From an uncultured virus (IMG/VR IMGVR_UViG_3300009155_000060) (lineage: Duplodnaviria > Heunggongvirae > Uroviricota > Caudoviricetes), in IMG/VR virus record IMGVR_UViG_3300009155_000060: a DNA stretch of 20,000 nucleotides. One strand, given 5' to 3'. Positions 8,726 through 17,830 of this stretch are shown here, piece after piece. Position 1 is the stretch's first letter; each line of letters begins with the position of its first letter. The position numbers were made by a program, and so were the translations under genes. The notes under the pieces are model-generated. The model saw only the letters and a list, made by a program, of their open reading frames with translations. It had not been told where the DNA came from and ran no database searches.

Positions 8726-9416
8726 ACTGCTGTTGGCTCAACCCTTCAAATGTATGCATTGCGATAAAAGTTTTATGAAAGAAAAAACTTCGCTGGCTCA
8801 TATGTGTGAAAGAAAAAGGCGTGCCTTGCAGGAAAAAGAAAAACGTGTGCAGGCCGGATTTGTGGCATTTAATAGATTTTGGAAATTGACACAAGGTGCT
8901 AAAAAATCCAAGACCTACGAGGAATTCTGTGATAGCAGTTATTACAATGCCTTTGTAAAATTTGGCAGTTTCGTTAACAACGTAGATCCTCTTTATCCAG
9001 ATAGATTTGTTGACTATGTAATCAAAAGCGGTATAAAATTAGATCATTGGTGTCGTGATGAATTGTATGATCGGTACCTCTATGAAATGATCAAACTGGA
9101 ATCTGTGGAAGATGCTGTTCGAAGAAGTCTGCAGACCATGATGGAATGGGGTGATGAACACAACGCAAATTTTGCACATTATTTTAATTATGTAAGCCTG
9201 AGCCGAGCAGTACATGATATCAAGAATGGTAAAATTACTGCATGGCTTATTTTAAATAGCCAATCGGGAAAAAACATGATCAGTAAAATGAGCGATGAGC
9301 AACTGGATATGATTGCTCCGGCGTTTGATATTCAATTTTGGTTAAAGAAATTTAAGGAAACTCCGGCAGACGTTGCCCTAGTAAAAGAAATTGTTGAAGA
9401 GGTAGGAATAGAATGA
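8718..9416 (+). CDS. Hypothetical protein with N-terminal Zn finger (C-x2-C-x12-H-x-C)
   Basis: FKCMHCDKSFMKEKTSLAHMC; likely start ATG 8718. Confidence 0.7.
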   Translation: MSKLLLAQPFKCMHCDKSFMKEKTSLAHMCERKRRALQEKEKRVQAGFVAFNRFWKLTQGAKKSKTYEEFCDSSYYNAFVKFGSFVNNVDPLYPDRFVDYVIKSGIKLDHWCRDELYDRYLYEMIKLESVEDAVRRSLQTMMEWGDEHNANFAHYFNYVSLSRAVHDIKNGKITAWLILNSQSGKNMISKMSDEQLDMIAPAFDIQFWLKKFKETPADVALVKEIVEEVGIE

Positions 9417-9769
9417 GACTAGATGGGTTTGTAGAAAAGGGGTGGGGATATGAAAATATATGGGCCACTAACGACAAGTACTGCGGCAAATTGATGAAAT
9501 TCAATACTGGTGCTCAATTCAGTATGCATTTTCATTCAGCGAAAGATGAAACCTGGTATGTGTTAGATGGTAAATTCACTGTGAGATTCATAGATACTAC
9601 TACCGCTAAAATCAGTGAGCTATTACTGAATCCTGGAGATGTTTGGCACAATCCTCCGCTGCTGCCCCATCAACTGTATTGTATAGAAGAAGGAACTATC
9701 ATCGAATTAAGCACCGCTGATAGTGTTGAAGACAACTATCGAGTCCTGCCAGGAGACAGTCAACGATGA
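9413..9769 (+). CDS. Cupin-fold sugar isomerase-like protein
   Basis: VEKGWGYE, SMHFHSAKDETWYVLDG and PLLPHQL cupin motifs. Confidence 0.8.
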   Translation: MRLDGFVEKGWGYENIWATNDKYCGKLMKFNTGAQFSMHFHSAKDETWYVLDGKFTVRFIDTTTAKISELLLNPGDVWHNPPLLPHQLYCIEEGTIIELSTADSVEDNYRVLPGDSQR

Positions 9770-10167
9770 ACACAAAAGTATTTGTTAACGGCACCTTTGA
9801 CATACTGCACATAGGTCATTTAGCACTTCTAGAATATGCATTCAGTCACGGGGAAAAGTTGACAGTTGCCATAGACAGTGATCGTCGTATTCGTGAATTG
9901 AAAGGGATCGATAGACCCATAAACAACCAGCAAGACCGTAAAACCATGTTAGAATGTCTGTATATGGTTGACGAGGTATATGTTTTTGACACCGACGAAG
10001 AATTAGTAGAATTGATCAAACAACACTGTGATATAATGGTCAAAGGCAGTGATTATCAAGGACGACCTATTATAGGTTCAGAATATTGCAAAGAAATAAA
10101 ATTTTATGAACGAATTGAAAAATACTCAACCACAGAAATCATTCAACGTATTGCTAATCGGCGATAG
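9766..10167 (+). CDS. Cytidylyltransferase-family nucleotidyltransferase (HldC / RfaE domain II-like)
   Basis: NGTFDILHIGH (HxGH), DSD..IRELKG.DRPIN, VKGSDY, YSTT. Confidence 0.85.
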   Translation: MNTKVFVNGTFDILHIGHLALLEYAFSHGEKLTVAIDSDRRIRELKGIDRPINNQQDRKTMLECLYMVDEVYVFDTDEELVELIKQHCDIMVKGSDYQGRPIIGSEYCKEIKFYERIEKYSTTEIIQRIANRR

Positions 10168-10876
10168 TTGTATTGATGAATATTTCATAGGTACCTGTGA
10201 CAGACTTAGTCCTGAAGCACCTGTACCTGTTATGAAAATCAACAATCACTATACCACTCAAGGTATGGCTTCTAATGTGAAGAATAATTTTGCTAGTCTG
10301 GGAATAGAGGTTGATTTTATCACTAATGAGTCAGCAATTACCAAGACTAGATATATTGATCAAAGATCGGGGCAACATCTGTTAAGGGTAGATGACGAAC
10401 CTTACCTTCCAGAATGGTCTGGCCATATTACACATCCTTTGACAAATTATGATGTTGTAGTAATTTCAGATTATGACAAAGGTTTTATCACCTACGAACA
10501 CGTAGAAATCATTATCAAAGAATGTCATTGCCCTGTATTCATCGACAGTAAAAAAACTAACCTAGCCAGATTCGAAGGAGCATTTGTAAAAATCAACAAC
10601 AAAGAATTCAGTCTGGCCAAAACATTTTGCTCAAACATAATTACAACCATGGGAGATCAAGGTGCCAGATATAATGGTAAAATTTACCCAGCACCTAAGG
10701 TAGGACTGGTAGATGTCTGCGGAGCGGGAGATACTTTTTTGGCAGCATTGGTATACCAATATCTAATGACTTCTAGCGTAGAAGAAGCTATACTGTTTGC
10801 CAACAAGGCGGGAGCTGTGTCTGTTCAACATCAGGGAAACTACTCCCCTAGACTAGAAGAAATAAATGGATATTGA
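10106..10876 (+). CDS. PfkB-family sugar kinase (HldA / RfaE domain I-like)
   Basis: IGD..IDEY..G.CDRLSPEAPVPV, SDYDKG, DVCGAGDTFLA. Confidence 0.85.
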   Translation: MNELKNTQPQKSFNVLLIGDSCIDEYFIGTCDRLSPEAPVPVMKINNHYTTQGMASNVKNNFASLGIEVDFITNESAITKTRYIDQRSGQHLLRVDDEPYLPEWSGHITHPLTNYDVVVISDYDKGFITYEHVEIIIKECHCPVFIDSKKTNLARFEGAFVKINNKEFSLAKTFCSNIITTMGDQGARYNGKIYPAPKVGLVDVCGAGDTFLAALVYQYLMTSSVEEAILFANKAGAVSVQHQGNYSPRLEEINGY

Positions 10877-13658: not shown

Positions 13659-15066
13659 ACCTGACTATAACCTAGAAGTACAAAAACTCTATCTGGAGAT
13701 GTTTCTGTCCGATGCAGAATCATTTGCTCGATGTCAAAACATATTTGATCCGGAAAATTTTGATAGGCGGCTACAGGAGCAGGCCAAGTTCATCAACGAC
13801 TATGTAGACAAGTACAAGGTCATGCCAGACGCGGCCATTATCAATGCAGCCTTAGGCTGCGATCTAAAAACTGAAGTCTTGCCCAAAGAGCACTATGATT
13901 GGCTATTGGACGAATTTGAGCGATTCAGCAGACACAAAGGCCTTGAACGTGCCATTCTCAAATCAGCTGACCTGCTGGAAAGTGGCGAGTATGGTCCTGT
14001 AGAAAAGCTGATCAAAGATGCCATACAGATCAGCTTGAACAAAGACATGGGCACTGACTACTTTGCTGATCCTCGTGGTAGACTGGGTCTGCTCAAAGAC
14101 AGCAACGGACAGATTTCAACTGGCTGGCCCACCGTAGACAAAAAACTCTATGGCGGATTTAATCGAGGTGAGCTCAATATTTTCTGTGCGGCTTCAGGTG
14201 GGGGCAAAAGTCTGTTTCTGGCCAATCTGGGTGTAAACTGGGCCATGGCCGGACTTAATGTCATATACTTGACCTTTGAGCTTAGTGAAGCACTGGTAGC
14301 CATGCGATTAGACAGTATGGTCACTGGCATCTCAACTCGTGAGATTTTTCGCAGCATTGACGAAGTAGAACTCAAAGTTAAGATGGCCGGAAAACGAGCG
14401 GGAAGTGTACAGATCAAGTATATGCCCAGTGGGAAAAATTGCAACGATATTCGTGCCTATTTGAAAGAATATCAGGTCAAAAAAGGTCAAAAACCTGACG
14501 TTTTGTTAATAGATTACTTGGATTTGATGATGCCTTTAAGCGTGAAGGTGTCGCCCAGTGATCTGTTTGTTAAAGACAAATATGTGTCGGAAGAGATTCG
14601 TAACCTAGCAATGGAAACACAGTGTATTACTGTAACGGCCAGTCAGTTGAATCGAAGTGCGGTGGAGGAGATTGAATTTGATCACAGCCACATCAGTGGT
14701 GGACTATCCAAGATCATGACGGCAGACAATGTGATTGGTATCTTTACGTCACGTGCTATGAAAGAGCGAGGACGCTATCAAATACAGTTTATGAAAACTC
14801 GCAGCAGCAGTGGTGTAGGTCAAAAGGTTGATTTGGAGTTCAATGTGGAAACACTGCGTATACTTGATCTAGGAGAGGACGGTGAAACTGCTGCTAGTCC
14901 CAGTCTTCCTACCAGCAGTGTTTATCAAGGCCTAAAACGTACCAGTACAACTACCGCAGAACCAAATCCCACTGTGGGTTCACCGGTGCCTCGAGCTAAA
15001 CCTCAGGCTAAATCGGGTGCTGATATTAGAAACATGCTGGCCAGTCTCAACGCAGAACGAGACTAA
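13651..15066 (+). CDS. Replicative DnaB-like helicase (T4 gp41-like)
   Basis: ISTGW..VD..LYGG, Walker A ASGGGKS, TFELSE, IDYLDLM, TASQLNR, MKTRSS. Confidence 0.92.
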   Translation: MNKPDYNLEVQKLYLEMFLSDAESFARCQNIFDPENFDRRLQEQAKFINDYVDKYKVMPDAAIINAALGCDLKTEVLPKEHYDWLLDEFERFSRHKGLERAILKSADLLESGEYGPVEKLIKDAIQISLNKDMGTDYFADPRGRLGLLKDSNGQISTGWPTVDKKLYGGFNRGELNIFCAASGGGKSLFLANLGVNWAMAGLNVIYLTFELSEALVAMRLDSMVTGISTREIFRSIDEVELKVKMAGKRAGSVQIKYMPSGKNCNDIRAYLKEYQVKKGQKPDVLLIDYLDLMMPLSVKVSPSDLFVKDKYVSEEIRNLAMETQCITVTASQLNRSAVEEIEFDHSHISGGLSKIMTADNVIGIFTSRAMKERGRYQIQFMKTRSSSGVGQKVDLEFNVETLRILDLGEDGETAASPSLPTSSVYQGLKRTSTTTAEPNPTVGSPVPRAKPQAKSGADIRNMLASLNAERD

Positions 15067-15629
15067 AACCAGGAGGCGATCTGCTGTCGTGCATGTGATT
15101 CAATCACATGATGCCACTGCTCTTGGCCGTCTAGACCAAATACCAGGTCAAGGTCTGCAGGCACAGTACTCCAACTATGTGCTAGATCATGCCAAGGGGC
15201 ATCTCCTGATATTTCACCCTCTAGGTGTCCAGGAGGCCATTTTAGGAATCCAGCTATGGCACGATAGTGTTGTGGACCTTCACCTGCTGCAATGGCGGCC
15301 AACACACTGACGTCATTGCTGAGTCCTAGACAGTCGTTAATAGCGGTAGTGGTAGGAGACGTCCAATCTAGGCTGTGCAGCATCATGATACGATTGGTGT
15401 TTTCGCCACCTCCCATGTACAGGGGTTGATCTACATCCAAGGTCAAATCCATGTTGCTCATTACCGAGGCCAGTGTGCTGCCATTGTTCAGCTGTTTGTT
15501 GATCTGTAGACCCAGACTGCCGGTGTGATCTTGATCTATGACCAATACAACTCCGTGACTGAGGAATCCCTTGGCTCGTTTAGGATGTGCGGCCAGTAAA
15601 TGACCCTGATAATTTTCTATGTCTTCCAT
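15063..15629 (-). CDS. YqgE/AlgH (DUF179) family protein
   Basis: GHLLAAHP, GSLGLQINK, LYMGG, LHS, GFLKW.PGHLEGEI, W..VPA..DLVF; start ATG at 15629. Confidence 0.85.
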   Translation of the reverse strand: MEDIENYQGHLLAAHPKRAKGFLSHGVVLVIDQDHTGSLGLQINKQLNNGSTLASVMSNMDLTLDVDQPLYMGGGENTNRIMMLHSLDWTSPTTTAINDCLGLSNDVSVLAAIAAGEGPQHYRAIAGFLKWPPGHLEGEISGDAPWHDLAHSWSTVPADLDLVFGLDGQEQWHHVIESHARQQIASWF

Positions 15630-15634
15630 AATGA

Positions 15635-15652
15635 TATTTACACAAATAAATA
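15635..15652. promoter_or_regulatory. Back-to-back divergent TAAATA boxes in a 29-nt intergenic gap
   Basis: Minus-strand TAAATA (15635-15640)-5 nt-ATG 15629; plus-strand TAAATA (15647-15652)-6 nt-ATG 15659. Confidence 0.65.
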
Positions 15653-15658
15653 CCAATT

Positions 15659-16351
15659 ATGCTGATTCGAGAATTCATTAGCCCGGGCATAGAAGCCCAC
15701 CCCGAACTTAACAGTCTTTTGTGGTCTGATCAAGGTCAGTTAGATCCCATGGTCAGATCTCATTTGATTAAAATTGCCAATCATTTCAAACGATTTGTAG
15801 ATCTAGATTTTGAAGTATTGGACCTGCAGATCACCGGGGGACAGACTGGCCGATATTGGACCAAGCACAGTGACCTAGACCTGCACCTGATCACTGACTA
15901 CTCCAGTATCGACTGCGATCAAGAGCTGGCCGAACTGTTTGACACCAAACGGCTGTTGTACAAGCAGCAGCACAAGATTACCATACGCGGTATCCCGGTG
16001 GAACTTTACGTAGAAGACAGTAGAGAACCTGCCGTGGGCGGAGCCTATAGCCTGATCCGAGACCAATGGGTGCGACCCAGTACAGAACCACGAGGTCCTC
16101 TAGATCTTGATCGTGTGGCACAGTATGCGGCTCGTTGGCAACAGATCATACAGGCCACTACAGCGATCAATGACATTGACCAGGCTCGCAAAGTCATGTC
16201 AGTGTTAAAGGATTATCGTCGCAAGGGCCTGGCTCGTAGCGGTGAATATGGTGTGGCCAATTTGGTGTTCAAGAGCCTACGCAATTCTGGACTAGTAGAT
16301 CAGCTGCGACAGCAGATCACAGATCTAGAAGATGGACAGCTGAGCCTGTAG
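15659..16351 (+). CDS. Pol-beta superfamily nucleotidyltransferase-like protein
   Basis: ITGG-x9-SDLDLH and IPVELYVED give the G[GS]..DxD..E catalytic pattern. Confidence 0.7.
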   Translation: MLIREFISPGIEAHPELNSLLWSDQGQLDPMVRSHLIKIANHFKRFVDLDFEVLDLQITGGQTGRYWTKHSDLDLHLITDYSSIDCDQELAELFDTKRLLYKQQHKITIRGIPVELYVEDSREPAVGGAYSLIRDQWVRPSTEPRGPLDLDRVAQYAARWQQIIQATTAINDIDQARKVMSVLKDYRRKGLARSGEYGVANLVFKSLRNSGLVDQLRQQITDLEDGQLSL

Positions 16352-16885
16352 CTCAGCGGCCGATTCTACCAGCCGTTGAAAATTCTGTTCTAGTTCCTGG
16401 GCCGAAGCCACCACATCACGATTGACCACATGAAAAGCTCTACCGCCCACGGCACGCCACTCGATGCAGTTGGTCAGGCGATCATCGACTAAGATGTCTC
16501 CCGGACGGCAGTGATGTTGTTTGTCATGACTGTAGGGACCAAAATGTACGGCAATGTCAGGAAAATGATCCTGTACCCAAAGAATCTTGTCGTACTGTGC
16601 CCAAGGCATGTCATTGAGCCTGGGAATGGCCGTTAAGAACAGCAGCCGCCAGCCCAATCGATCTCTGTACTGTCGTGCGGTGTTGACCAACTGCCAGCAG
16701 CCCGCCATAGGTGGCAGATCACGATAAAAGCGTTCTATGTCACGAATCTTTGGCCATTCATCGCCCACAAAACTGAAAATTCCATCTTGTGTATAGCCGG
16801 ATAGATCACGTCCTAGGTGCTGTGCGGCCATGGCATCAAAGTCTGCTACCACGCCATCCATGTCAAGATACAGTGTTGGTGTCAT
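16325..16885 (-). CDS. HAD-superfamily 5'(3')-deoxyribonucleotidase-like protein
   Basis: LYLDMDGVVADF, FLTA, K..WV, DILVDDR..N..EW...GG; start at 16885 or 16909. Confidence 0.85.
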   Translation of the reverse strand: MTPTLYLDMDGVVADFDAMAAQHLGRDLSGYTQDGIFSFVGDEWPKIRDIERFYRDLPPMAGCWQLVNTARQYRDRLGWRLLFLTAIPRLNDMPWAQYDKILWVQDHFPDIAVHFGPYSHDKQHHCRPGDILVDDRLTNCIEWRAVGGRAFHVVNRDVVASAQELEQNFQRLVESAAELQAQLSIF

Positions 16886-16920
16886 AAAAATCCCCGTAGT
16901 ATAGACCATTACTTAGCTGT

Positions 16921-17124: not shown

Positions 17125-17364
17125 TTACTTAGCGGCCGGTGCTGTGGTGGCAGCAGGCGTAGCAGCCTTTGCGTCGGCTTTGGCAGGAGCCGCACCTTCA
17201 CTTTTGGCAGGCTTAGCAACGTCATGCTTGTCCTGTTTGGTAACTGCATCAGTTTTGGCAGGTGCAGCAGCGGGTGCAGCGGGAGCGGCCGGTGCCTTGG
17301 CTGGCTCAGCGGCAAAAGCGGTAGCGGCAAATAGACCAGCGATTAGAGTTGCGATTGTTTTCAT
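17125..17364 (-). CDS. Small secreted Ala/Pro/Lys-rich protein with Sec signal peptide
   Basis: MKTIATLIAGLFAATAFA|AEPAK signal with AxA cleavage site; SD AAGGAA; disordered APAK-rich mature part. Confidence 0.85.
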   Translation of the reverse strand: MKTIATLIAGLFAATAFAAEPAKAPAAPAAPAAAPAKTDAVTKQDKHDVAKPAKSEGAAPAKADAKAATPAATTAPAAK

Positions 17365-17461
17365 TTTAGAACTTCCTTTAAGTTTATATTATGCACAGAA
17401 ACTGCTCTGTACATATACTATTAACGCACCTGTTAACAGATCCGTTGACATGTATTTGCCC

Positions 17462-17490
17462 AAAAGAAACCCGCCATTACAGCGGGTTCT
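17462..17490 (-). terminator. Terminator at the 3' end of the tmRNA coding piece
   Basis: Minus strand GAACCCGCTG-TAA-TGGCGGGTTTC-TTTT. Confidence 0.85.
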
Positions 17491-17537
17491 GGTTGGGTTC
17501 GGTGACGAGGTCTTTCCTACCTCGGAGTCGCTGCTGT

Positions 17538-17618
17538 TTAGGCAGCTAGAGCAAACTGCTCATCGTTGGCTACAACGATAGAACTGTTGTTCAAGAACTC
17601 AAGTGTAGATGCTGTTGC
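17538..17618 (-). other. tmRNA tag reading frame ATASTLEFLNNSSIVVANDEQFALAA* (short alternative ANDEQFALAA, 17538-17570)
   Basis: 27 codons in frame including the stop; GCA at 17616-17618 is preceded by UAAAU (U-5/A-4 resume context) just after the PK1-like element. Confidence 0.7.
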
Positions 17619-17801
17619 ATTTACTAGTTTTGCTTCTTTTAGGGAGATCGCCTACCCTGTTGTCCACTCATCTACTGATCCGTCAATCGATACCATGGCG
17701 GTCCCCCTGATTTGGAACCGAAGGGAGTCGAACCCTTGTCTTGCCCGTCTTTGGACTTGCTTCTTTCCCCGCTCACGCAAGGCATTTACAACAATATCAA
17801 C

Positions 17802-17830
17802 AGTGTATATTTATAGAACCATTCTGTCAA
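17802..17830 (-). promoter_or_regulatory. tmRNA promoter: TTGACA-17-TACACT with nested TATAAATA late box
   Basis: -35 at 17825-17830, -10 at 17802-17807, TATAAATA at 17808-17815. Confidence 0.8.

Follow-up and report, generated by a model that had tools for sequence, protein, structure and literature searches.

The window, a 20,000-nucleotide stretch of DNA from an uncultured virus, carries a circularly permuted (two-piece) tmRNA gene [17538-17768(-); Rfam RF04321] that very probably encodes a tag of 26 residues, read from the GCA codon at 17618. Phage tmRNAs are usually seen as copies of host genes that free ribosomes; here the tag itself appears to have been remodelled. Conservation of about eleven of the added residues matches that of the degron that follows them, and the fate of the rescued protein would therefore seem to matter to the phage. 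The RNA is of a known kind, as phage two-piece tmRNAs have already been published (PMC4131195), and what is new is the long tag together with its selection.

The permuted tmRNA gene of the window

The presence of gp32, RecA, UvsW-like and DnaB-like genes identifies the window as part of a T4-like jumbo phage, with a genome of ~350-400 kb. A blastn comparison with cultured phages gave no close match. The complete 383-kb viral record G002 encodes a RecA and a helicase that are 79% and 62% identical, respectively, to those of the window. The host is likely to be betaproteobacterial, judging by the tmRNA type and the TctC/TctA genes of G002. This record (L390-L409) also carries 41 tRNA genes and genes for bS21, peptide deformylase, heme oxygenase, bilin reductase, CsgF/CsgG, IscU/IscA and TctA/TctC. 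Elsewhere in the window, cupin, cytidylyltransferase and PfkB-family kinase genes stand in a row [9413-10876(+)], which we take to resemble a split HldE-type heptose pathway, and an AlgH/DUF179 gene and an NT5C nucleotidase adjoin the helicase (15063-16909), together with a nucleotidyltransferase-like gene lacking a Pfam match.

The tmRNA gene scores 79 bits with the RF04321 covariance model, for which the gathering cut-off is 47. The consensus resume site of the model falls on the first GCA, and 40 nt of the tag are modelled as an insertion. ARAGORN made no gene call at 17538-17768(-) under default settings, and with relaxed thresholds it returned a permuted tmRNA with the identical 26-aa tag. 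The tRNA(Ala)-like domain comprises a 7-bp acceptor stem with the G3-U70 pair, a discriminator A and a T arm, and its 3′ half lies upstream of its 5′ half. A pseudoknot is followed by a resume context and an open frame with a small hydrophobic end. The distinguished features, in the order of transcription, are as follows:

17802..17830 (-): putative sigma-70-like promoter of the tmRNA precursor, TTGACA-17-TACACT (consensus scan, 10/12)
17713..17795 (-): acceptor piece, corresponding to the 3′ half of a standard tmRNA and placed first in the gene (RF04321 alignment; 5′ limit approximate)
17721..17737 (-): T arm, 5 bp with a 7-nt loop (sequence and Rfam alignment)
17713..17720 (-): 3′ strand of the acceptor stem and discriminator A (7/7 pairs including G3-U70; CCA not encoded)
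17706..17712 (-): intervening sequence of 7 nt, without CCA (piece boundaries)
17699..17705 (-): 5′ strand of the acceptor stem, start of the coding piece
17632..17658 (-): PK1-type pseudoknot preceding the resume codon (covariation)
17616..17623 (-): resume context UAAAU and predicted resume codon GCA, 13 nt past the pseudoknot
17604..17618 (-): tag codons 1-5 (ATAST), under apparent RNA-level constraint
17571..17603 (-): tag codons 6-16 (LEFLNNSSIVV), extension apparently selected as peptide (family pN/pS)
17538..17570 (-): host-type degron ANDEQFALAA and stop (translation)
17455..17492 (-): terminator-like hairpin and U-run 3′ of the coding piece (sequence and fold)

The promoter-like site is the best of four in the region, where 1.5 would be expected by chance, and its function is putative; the hairpin at 17455..17492 was not listed by a terminator scan. 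A further predicted hairpin, of 8 bp [17561-17580(-)], holds the inner GC in its loop.

The intervening sequence is the shortest seen (three of 116 distinct records; median 76 nt). Its form, 7 nt without CCA, is common to the window, L054 and L546, and the nearest relatives with an identical tag have a 75-nt intervening sequence that includes CCA. The window gene resembles a mosaic, its 5′ half being of the L054 type and its 3′ half of the L122 type. One identical intervening-sequence core recurs across tag classes among 108, but as proof of tag shuffling such sharing is thin. By analogy with the family, the precursor would be cut in two, receive CCA, be alanylated and act in partnership with SmpB; the window tmRNA is real and probably functional.

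None of 24 RNA runs contains half of the sampled words. In the four runs that were aligned, contigs of 159-205 nt with 3-4 differences span 17491-17696, which corresponds to the predicted coding piece including the whole tag; they come from relatives of the window, one of which has a long intervening sequence. Such RNA-library contigs show the presence of the sequence, not its strand, ends or level, and may reflect DNA carry-over. Their lack of cover above 17767 and their shared ends near 17491-17496 were not counted as evidence.

Directly after the tmRNA gene, the window encodes a small secreted Ala/Pro/Lys-rich protein [17125-17364(-)], and in many relatives this place is taken by signal-peptide proteins resembling outer-membrane beta-barrels or by peroxiredoxin-like or rubrerythrin-like proteins; these labels were assigned by sequence inspection. 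Within a flank of about 500 nt, none of the downstream genes tracks tag class.

Reading frame and selection of the long tag

An earlier note, made from the bare sequence and silent on the circular permutation, had proposed that translation resumes at GCA 17616-17618, just downstream of a PK1-like element, and that 16 residues thus precede a canonical degron. Retranslation of 17618-17538(-) agreed with all of its coordinates, giving 26 residues and a stop, of which the last ten, from 17570, are ANDEQFALAA. It had also read the contexts correctly: UAAAU precedes the first GCA, and UUGUA, which is no such context, precedes the inner GCC. The PK1-like element proved to be a pseudoknot of nine pairs, 96.9% paired over 86 sequences, with two-sided changes at seven pairs and a covariation score that none of 500 shuffles reached, the relatedness of the sequences not being removed. 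In the window, an additional pair flanking stem 1 is mismatched. With search patterns that permitted 11-20 nt, the gap between pseudoknot and GCA was 13 nt in 75 of the 90 long phage tags and in 41 of the 65 short ones.

A tmRNA's resume codon is positioned by the sequence upstream of it (PMC3985003). By homology, GCA 17618 corresponds to the first codon of ANDESYALAA in Alcaligenaceae and of the 10-aa tags of related phages. At the aligned GCA also begins the 13-aa tag of L054, a close phage relative that shares with the window its 7-nt intervening sequence and its downstream gene.

Viral scans, in which the patterns demanded UAAAU-GCA and an Ala-Ala end and left the reading frame free, yielded at least 361 loci; among the matches listed, 143 records passed a D-loop filter, 99 of them distinct. 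A distal Ala-Ala-stop is present in 95 of these 99 tmRNAs and, among the matches listed, lies in an open frame that starts at the first GCA in 94 of the 95, the other two frames containing stops in 93/94 and 90/94. In bacterial genomes, a like pattern matched 44 sequences that are not tmRNAs, of which only 5 had an open reading in frame, so the conservation of frame exceeds chance. The single exception, L305, bears a short duplication near the tag start and has lost the Ala-Ala end (a pseudogene or an assembly error). A check of the 26-aa reading against homologous sequences was therefore passed, as the nearest homologues (L018/L122 and L126) encode an identical peptide and 1 of 95 relatives is frameshifted.

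At least 72 distinct tag peptides, 22-34 aa long, were distinguished; they form about ten dissimilar classes and thus define no single sharp motif. The long tag is not a one-off feature but is shared by a large phage family, and long tags have also been described in Mycoplasma (PMC8403727). In 185,579 prokaryote genomes the PK1 pattern of the phage family gave 33 matches, namely 30 complete and one cut-off ANDESYALAA tag of Alcaligenaceae-type tmRNAs, one chance match and one long tag; with 31 Alcaligenaceae-type genes among 33 matches, a beta-type PK1 and spacing are evidently shared. The contig with the lone long tag (7.6 kb; L425/L596), assigned to a Bifidobacterium MAG, carries a tag equal to that of viral contigs and is probably a misbinned phage piece. 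A second scan of viral records found 66 short-tag (10-14 aa) tmRNAs among 120 loci.

Positional homology with the short tags, conservation of frame and peptide-level selection (see below) lend strong support to the 26-aa reading, and by comparison resumption at GCA 17618 is very probable. It is highly improbable that translation resumes at the inner GCC, to give an ordinary 10-aa tag preceded by untranslated RNA. The last ten residues of the window tag do constitute, exactly, the whole tag of three short-tag phages (L470, L540 and L574), and the first GCA can be masked by a weak hairpin (-5.6 kcal/mol) predicted to cover it in the window. However, the inner codon lies 61 nt from the pseudoknot, is mostly GCU or GCC and lacks UAAAU in 59 of 59 sequences with the inner motif. 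Moreover, an inner Asn motif is kept in 40-45 of the 72 long tags and is wholly missing from 27-32, depending on the rule, so the latter have no canonical inner start. Frame and peptide are conserved upstream of the inner codon, and the 12-aa tag of a cultured phage opens with the same five-codon element and offers no alternative site. A hairpin over the resume codon [17604-17624(-) in the window] can form in 64 of 88 long sequences and in none of 62 short ones, shows no covariation and could tune the loading of the reading frame.

Selection was estimated from 55 nearest-neighbour pairs (tree edges) among 84 distinct coding sequences. The pN/pS ratio is 0.36 for the whole extension, which divides into two parts. 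Codons 2-5 show almost no synonymous change (pS 0.037, pN/pS 2.55), and the Ala3 codon is GCA in 66 of 66 cases, compared with 88 of the 260 later Ala codons; by this pattern of substitution, these codons are constrained as RNA. The idea that residues 1-6 represent a duplicated SspB half-site was set aside because the synonymous sites of codons 2-5 are frozen, which indicates RNA constraint; Asn2 is retained less frequently in tags with an inner Asn (p=0.04, among related sequences). From codon 6 up to the last ten, pN/pS falls to 0.24 (p=7e-19), and it is 0.33 in the last ten codons, the degron. A structural role of the RNA in the rest of the extension was rejected, as the 72 tags have no folding advantage over their synonymous recodings (mean z -0.03). 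The low ratio without excess folding argues that this middle part of the tag is translated and is important as a peptide. The earlier interpretation is supported in part: from codon 6 on the extension is more than a neutral spacer, while the altered adaptor or protease routing that the note suggested is conjectural.

Hydrophobic residues occupy tag positions 6, 8, 11 and 13 in 72-82% of the 72 peptides, and 65 of the 72 extensions contain two or more aromatic residues. The window fits this pattern at positions 6 and 8 (Leu6, Phe8), not at 11 and 13, and its extension has one aromatic residue. In the family as a whole, one and the same 31-aa peptide is encoded by eight different nucleotide sequences. 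Leu stands at position -3 in 56 of the 72 tags, and the C-terminal AA is kept, although it was required by the search patterns. The binding site of SspB is AAND-x-x-aromatic, 11 residues from the tag end; at the putative site the window has VANDEQF, with Val for the first Ala, and Ala occurs at -11 in 32 of the 72 tags. The window tag ends in LAA, the C-terminal element of the proteobacterial ssrA degron (PMC9382460), but with 26 residues it is far longer than the usual ~10, 10 aa being the most frequent tag length (PMC11915505).

Candidate roles of the extension

We propose, with about even confidence, that the extension is a hydrophobic second recognition or grip element for AAA+ proteases, placed before the host-type degron. 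The phage would supply its own two-piece tmRNA, from which host enzymes would excise the 7-nt intervening sequence before adding CCA and charging alanine. With host SmpB the tmRNA would enter stalled ribosomes, resume at GCA 17618 and add Ala plus 26 residues. The last ten residues would act as a common degron of the betaproteobacterial type, read by SspB/ClpXP and ClpAP (Alcaligenaceae genomes carry their own SspB, 2/2, and ClpA, 1/1), and codons 2-5 would be retained for the sake of the RNA. Residues 6 to about 16 would form a second hydrophobic/aromatic element, selected as peptide, that offers AAA+ proteases of the infected cell an extra stretch to bind or grip. Degradation of the rescued fragments would then be more reliable or would involve more than one protease, chiefly the double-ring ClpA(P), whether host or phage-encoded.

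The ClpA channel is described as holding about 24-25 residues and gripping hydrophobic side chains (PMC11570520). This is close to the tag lengths of 22-34 aa, a match that is suggestive only, since the distance between the end of a truncated chain and a folded domain is not fixed. ssrA tags are taken up directly by ClpA, and ClpS inhibits the recognition of ssrA-tagged proteins by ClpAP (PMC8666677); a lengthened tag that adds protease contacts has a precedent in Mycoplasma (PMC8403727). Against the second-grip proposal stand the phage G038, which has a Clp set and a 10-aa tag, the phage G029, which has a long tag and ClpX, the short tags of the nearest relatives of the window, the partial fit of the window to the hydrophobic pattern, the roughly ten tag classes, and the weak hairpin predicted over the resume codon.

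Clp genes were compared between 26 long-tag records, of which one (G002) is complete, and 23 short-tag records; G009/L255 (a chance match, not a tmRNA) and G001/G028 (the record ends before the tmRNA) were excluded from the 26. The estimated genome size is 346-500 kb in 26/26 long-tag vs 10/23 short-tag records. ClpS was found in 18/26 vs 2/23 records, and inside the jumbo size class in 18/26 vs 2/9 (p=0.02); part of this excess is linkage, as about 15 kb separate clpS from the tmRNA gene in G002. A full-length ClpA-like ATPase is encoded in 5/26 vs 1/23 records, a difference that is not significant (p=0.19), and in five of the seven long-tag records that are at least 46% complete. Neither ClpA nor ClpS was detected in seven near-complete short-tag phages of about 157-175 kb. 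ClpP or ClpP-like proteins do not discriminate (14/26 vs 12/23), ClpX was found in one of the 26 long-tag records (G029), and SspB, SmpB and Lon in none of these 26. TIGR02639 is the best family for all five phage ClpA-like proteins, at full length and with 806-885 bits, below the cut-off of 993. The complete genome G002 encodes ClpA-like, ClpS, ClpP, DnaK, DnaJ, Hsp20 and GroES proteins, and a Pfam scan of 296 of its 359 ORFs revealed no PDZ protease and no release factor. The association of long tags with Clp genes is partial and confounded by lineage and linkage, the records being related.

In a helicase tree of 19 rows, the long-tag label needs five changes, three of them forced by well-supported branches, and the rows nearest to the window, G045 and G031, have 13- and 10-aa tags. 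The long tag may therefore be an optional cassette, repeatedly gained, lost or swapped among jumbo phages.

A more specific alternative, which we consider rather unlikely, is that residues 6-16 are read specifically by the phage's own ClpA-like ATPase/ClpS/ClpP, so that phage-rescued fragments would reach a phage-run protease even when ClpS damps ClpA on tags of the host type; the phage Clp proteins would then co-vary with the tag classes as lock and key. Ribosome rescue would become a private disposal route, with a two-part address whose middle is read by phage ClpA/ClpS/ClpP independently of host adaptors. The tag would be an exchangeable, diversifying cassette that co-evolves with this machine or evades host control of proteolysis, an extrapolation to which we attach a similarly low probability. 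The ClpA-like, ClpS and ClpP genes of long-tag jumbo phages, where SspB, SmpB and Lon were not found, are consistent with such a route, as are the excess of ClpS within the jumbo size class, the inhibition of ClpAP by ClpS cited above and the occurrence of such long tags on viral contigs, the one exception being the contig judged to be misbinned. On the other hand, G038 combines a full Clp set (ClpA-like, ClpS and ClpP) with a 10-aa tag, sister phages differ in tag length, and no ClpA, ClpS or ClpP gene was seen in the close relative G031, which is 54% complete. The five long-tag ClpA sequences are too few to reveal co-variation.

It is less probable still that the extension is a Lon degron, as in Mycoplasma, by which host Lon would be recruited to back up a ClpXP that is saturated or inhibited in the course of infection. 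The richness of most extensions in aromatic residues would suit this role, hydrophobic stretches being held to be recognised by Lon (PMC11986505), and Lon degrades the 27-aa tag of M. pneumoniae (PMC8403727). However, Mycoplasma tags end in NYAFA, not LAA (PMC9382460), whereas the phage tags keep a Clp-type end, the window extension has a single aromatic residue, and no phage Lon was found in the 26 long-tag records.

There is little likelihood that the extension is translated but merely tolerated as a spacer, constrained to an open frame and a general composition. The roughly ten unrelated classes of 22-34 aa, repeated gain and loss, and sister phages without an extension speak for tolerance; the pN/pS ratio from codon 6 on, lower than that of the degron, the identical 31-aa peptide encoded in eight ways and the hydrophobic pattern maintained by position across classes speak against it. 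We think it slightly less likely again that the long tag slows or diverts degradation, as a decoy, for chaperone hand-over or as a mark of phage-rescued products: G002 does encode DnaK, DnaJ and Hsp20, and alternating hydrophobic residues could bind chaperones, but the terminal Leu-Ala-Ala degron is under purifying selection, as estimated from tags within the scope of the search patterns, which sample Ala-Ala ends and not degron loss.

Whichever protease is involved, the 72 natural tags constitute a ready library for studying how the length of a tag and a hydrophobic element upstream direct substrates to ClpXP, ClpAP(S) or Lon, and degrons of new specificity could be drawn from it. Should the extension be read by a phage protease, a tmRNA-protease pair would be encoded wholly by the virus.

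Comparison with known tmRNA systems

The two-piece tmRNAs of betaproteobacteria (RF01850/RF04321; Advenella, Oligella and Pelistega) share with the window the permuted order, the G3-U70 stem, PK1 and the resume spacing. In contrast to the 26 aa of the window, all 30 complete tags of the Alcaligenaceae genes are 10 aa long (ANDESYALAA), and the window further differs in its 7-nt intervening sequence without CCA. L250, L070, L425 and L526 score above the RF01850 cut-off, and the window and L054 score below it, the window being matched by RF04321 only; L021 and L469 fit the alpha model better than RF01850.

Among phages, a complete permuted ssrA gene like that of the window is present in Melnitz, an aquatic T4-like phage of Methylophilales, and 53 two-piece tmRNA forms were reported among isolate genomes in the same study (PMC9004378). 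tmRNAs are also known in huge phages (PMC7162821). Both groups are presumed to keep ribosomes running during infection, and long tags or tag selection are not described in the available parts of these two accounts (PMC9004378, PMC7162821). The literature searched, which included few subscription journals, yielded no description of long phage tags or of a wholly virus-encoded tmRNA-protease pair; the full tmRNA database may contain such tags.

We identified unannotated permuted tmRNAs with tags of about 12-18 aa in three cultured jumbo phages: XacN1 (L617:1028-1327, AP018399; two copies), Xoo-sp13 (L643, MN047793) and Brevundimonas phage Domovoi (L583:579-834, ON529855). The gene of jumbo phage XacN1 is of the beta type, and its 12-aa tag, ANANTFDYALAA, opens like the commonest long tags; unlike the window family, XacN1 has a short tag, and it has no ClpA gene. 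The jumbo myoviruses PA5oct, Paride, MIJ3 and Atu_ph07 provide the best cultured matches of the window helicase (51% identity to PA5oct/Paride), but PA5oct, unlike the window, is without a permuted tmRNA.

The closest parallel in tag length comes from Mycoplasma and Mesoplasma, whose ssrA tags are read by Lon (27 aa in M. pneumoniae) and also place a hydrophobic/aromatic extension before the terminal degron (PMC8403727, PMC9382460). Their tmRNA, however, is a one-piece molecule with a tag ending in NYAFA, in hosts that are without ClpXP (PMC8403727, PMC9382460). The window tag ends in FALAA, not in the mollicute NYAFA type, and the tags of its family differ from those of Mycoplasma and Mesoplasma in that their LAA end is still of the Clp type and that a host-type tag is often kept whole.
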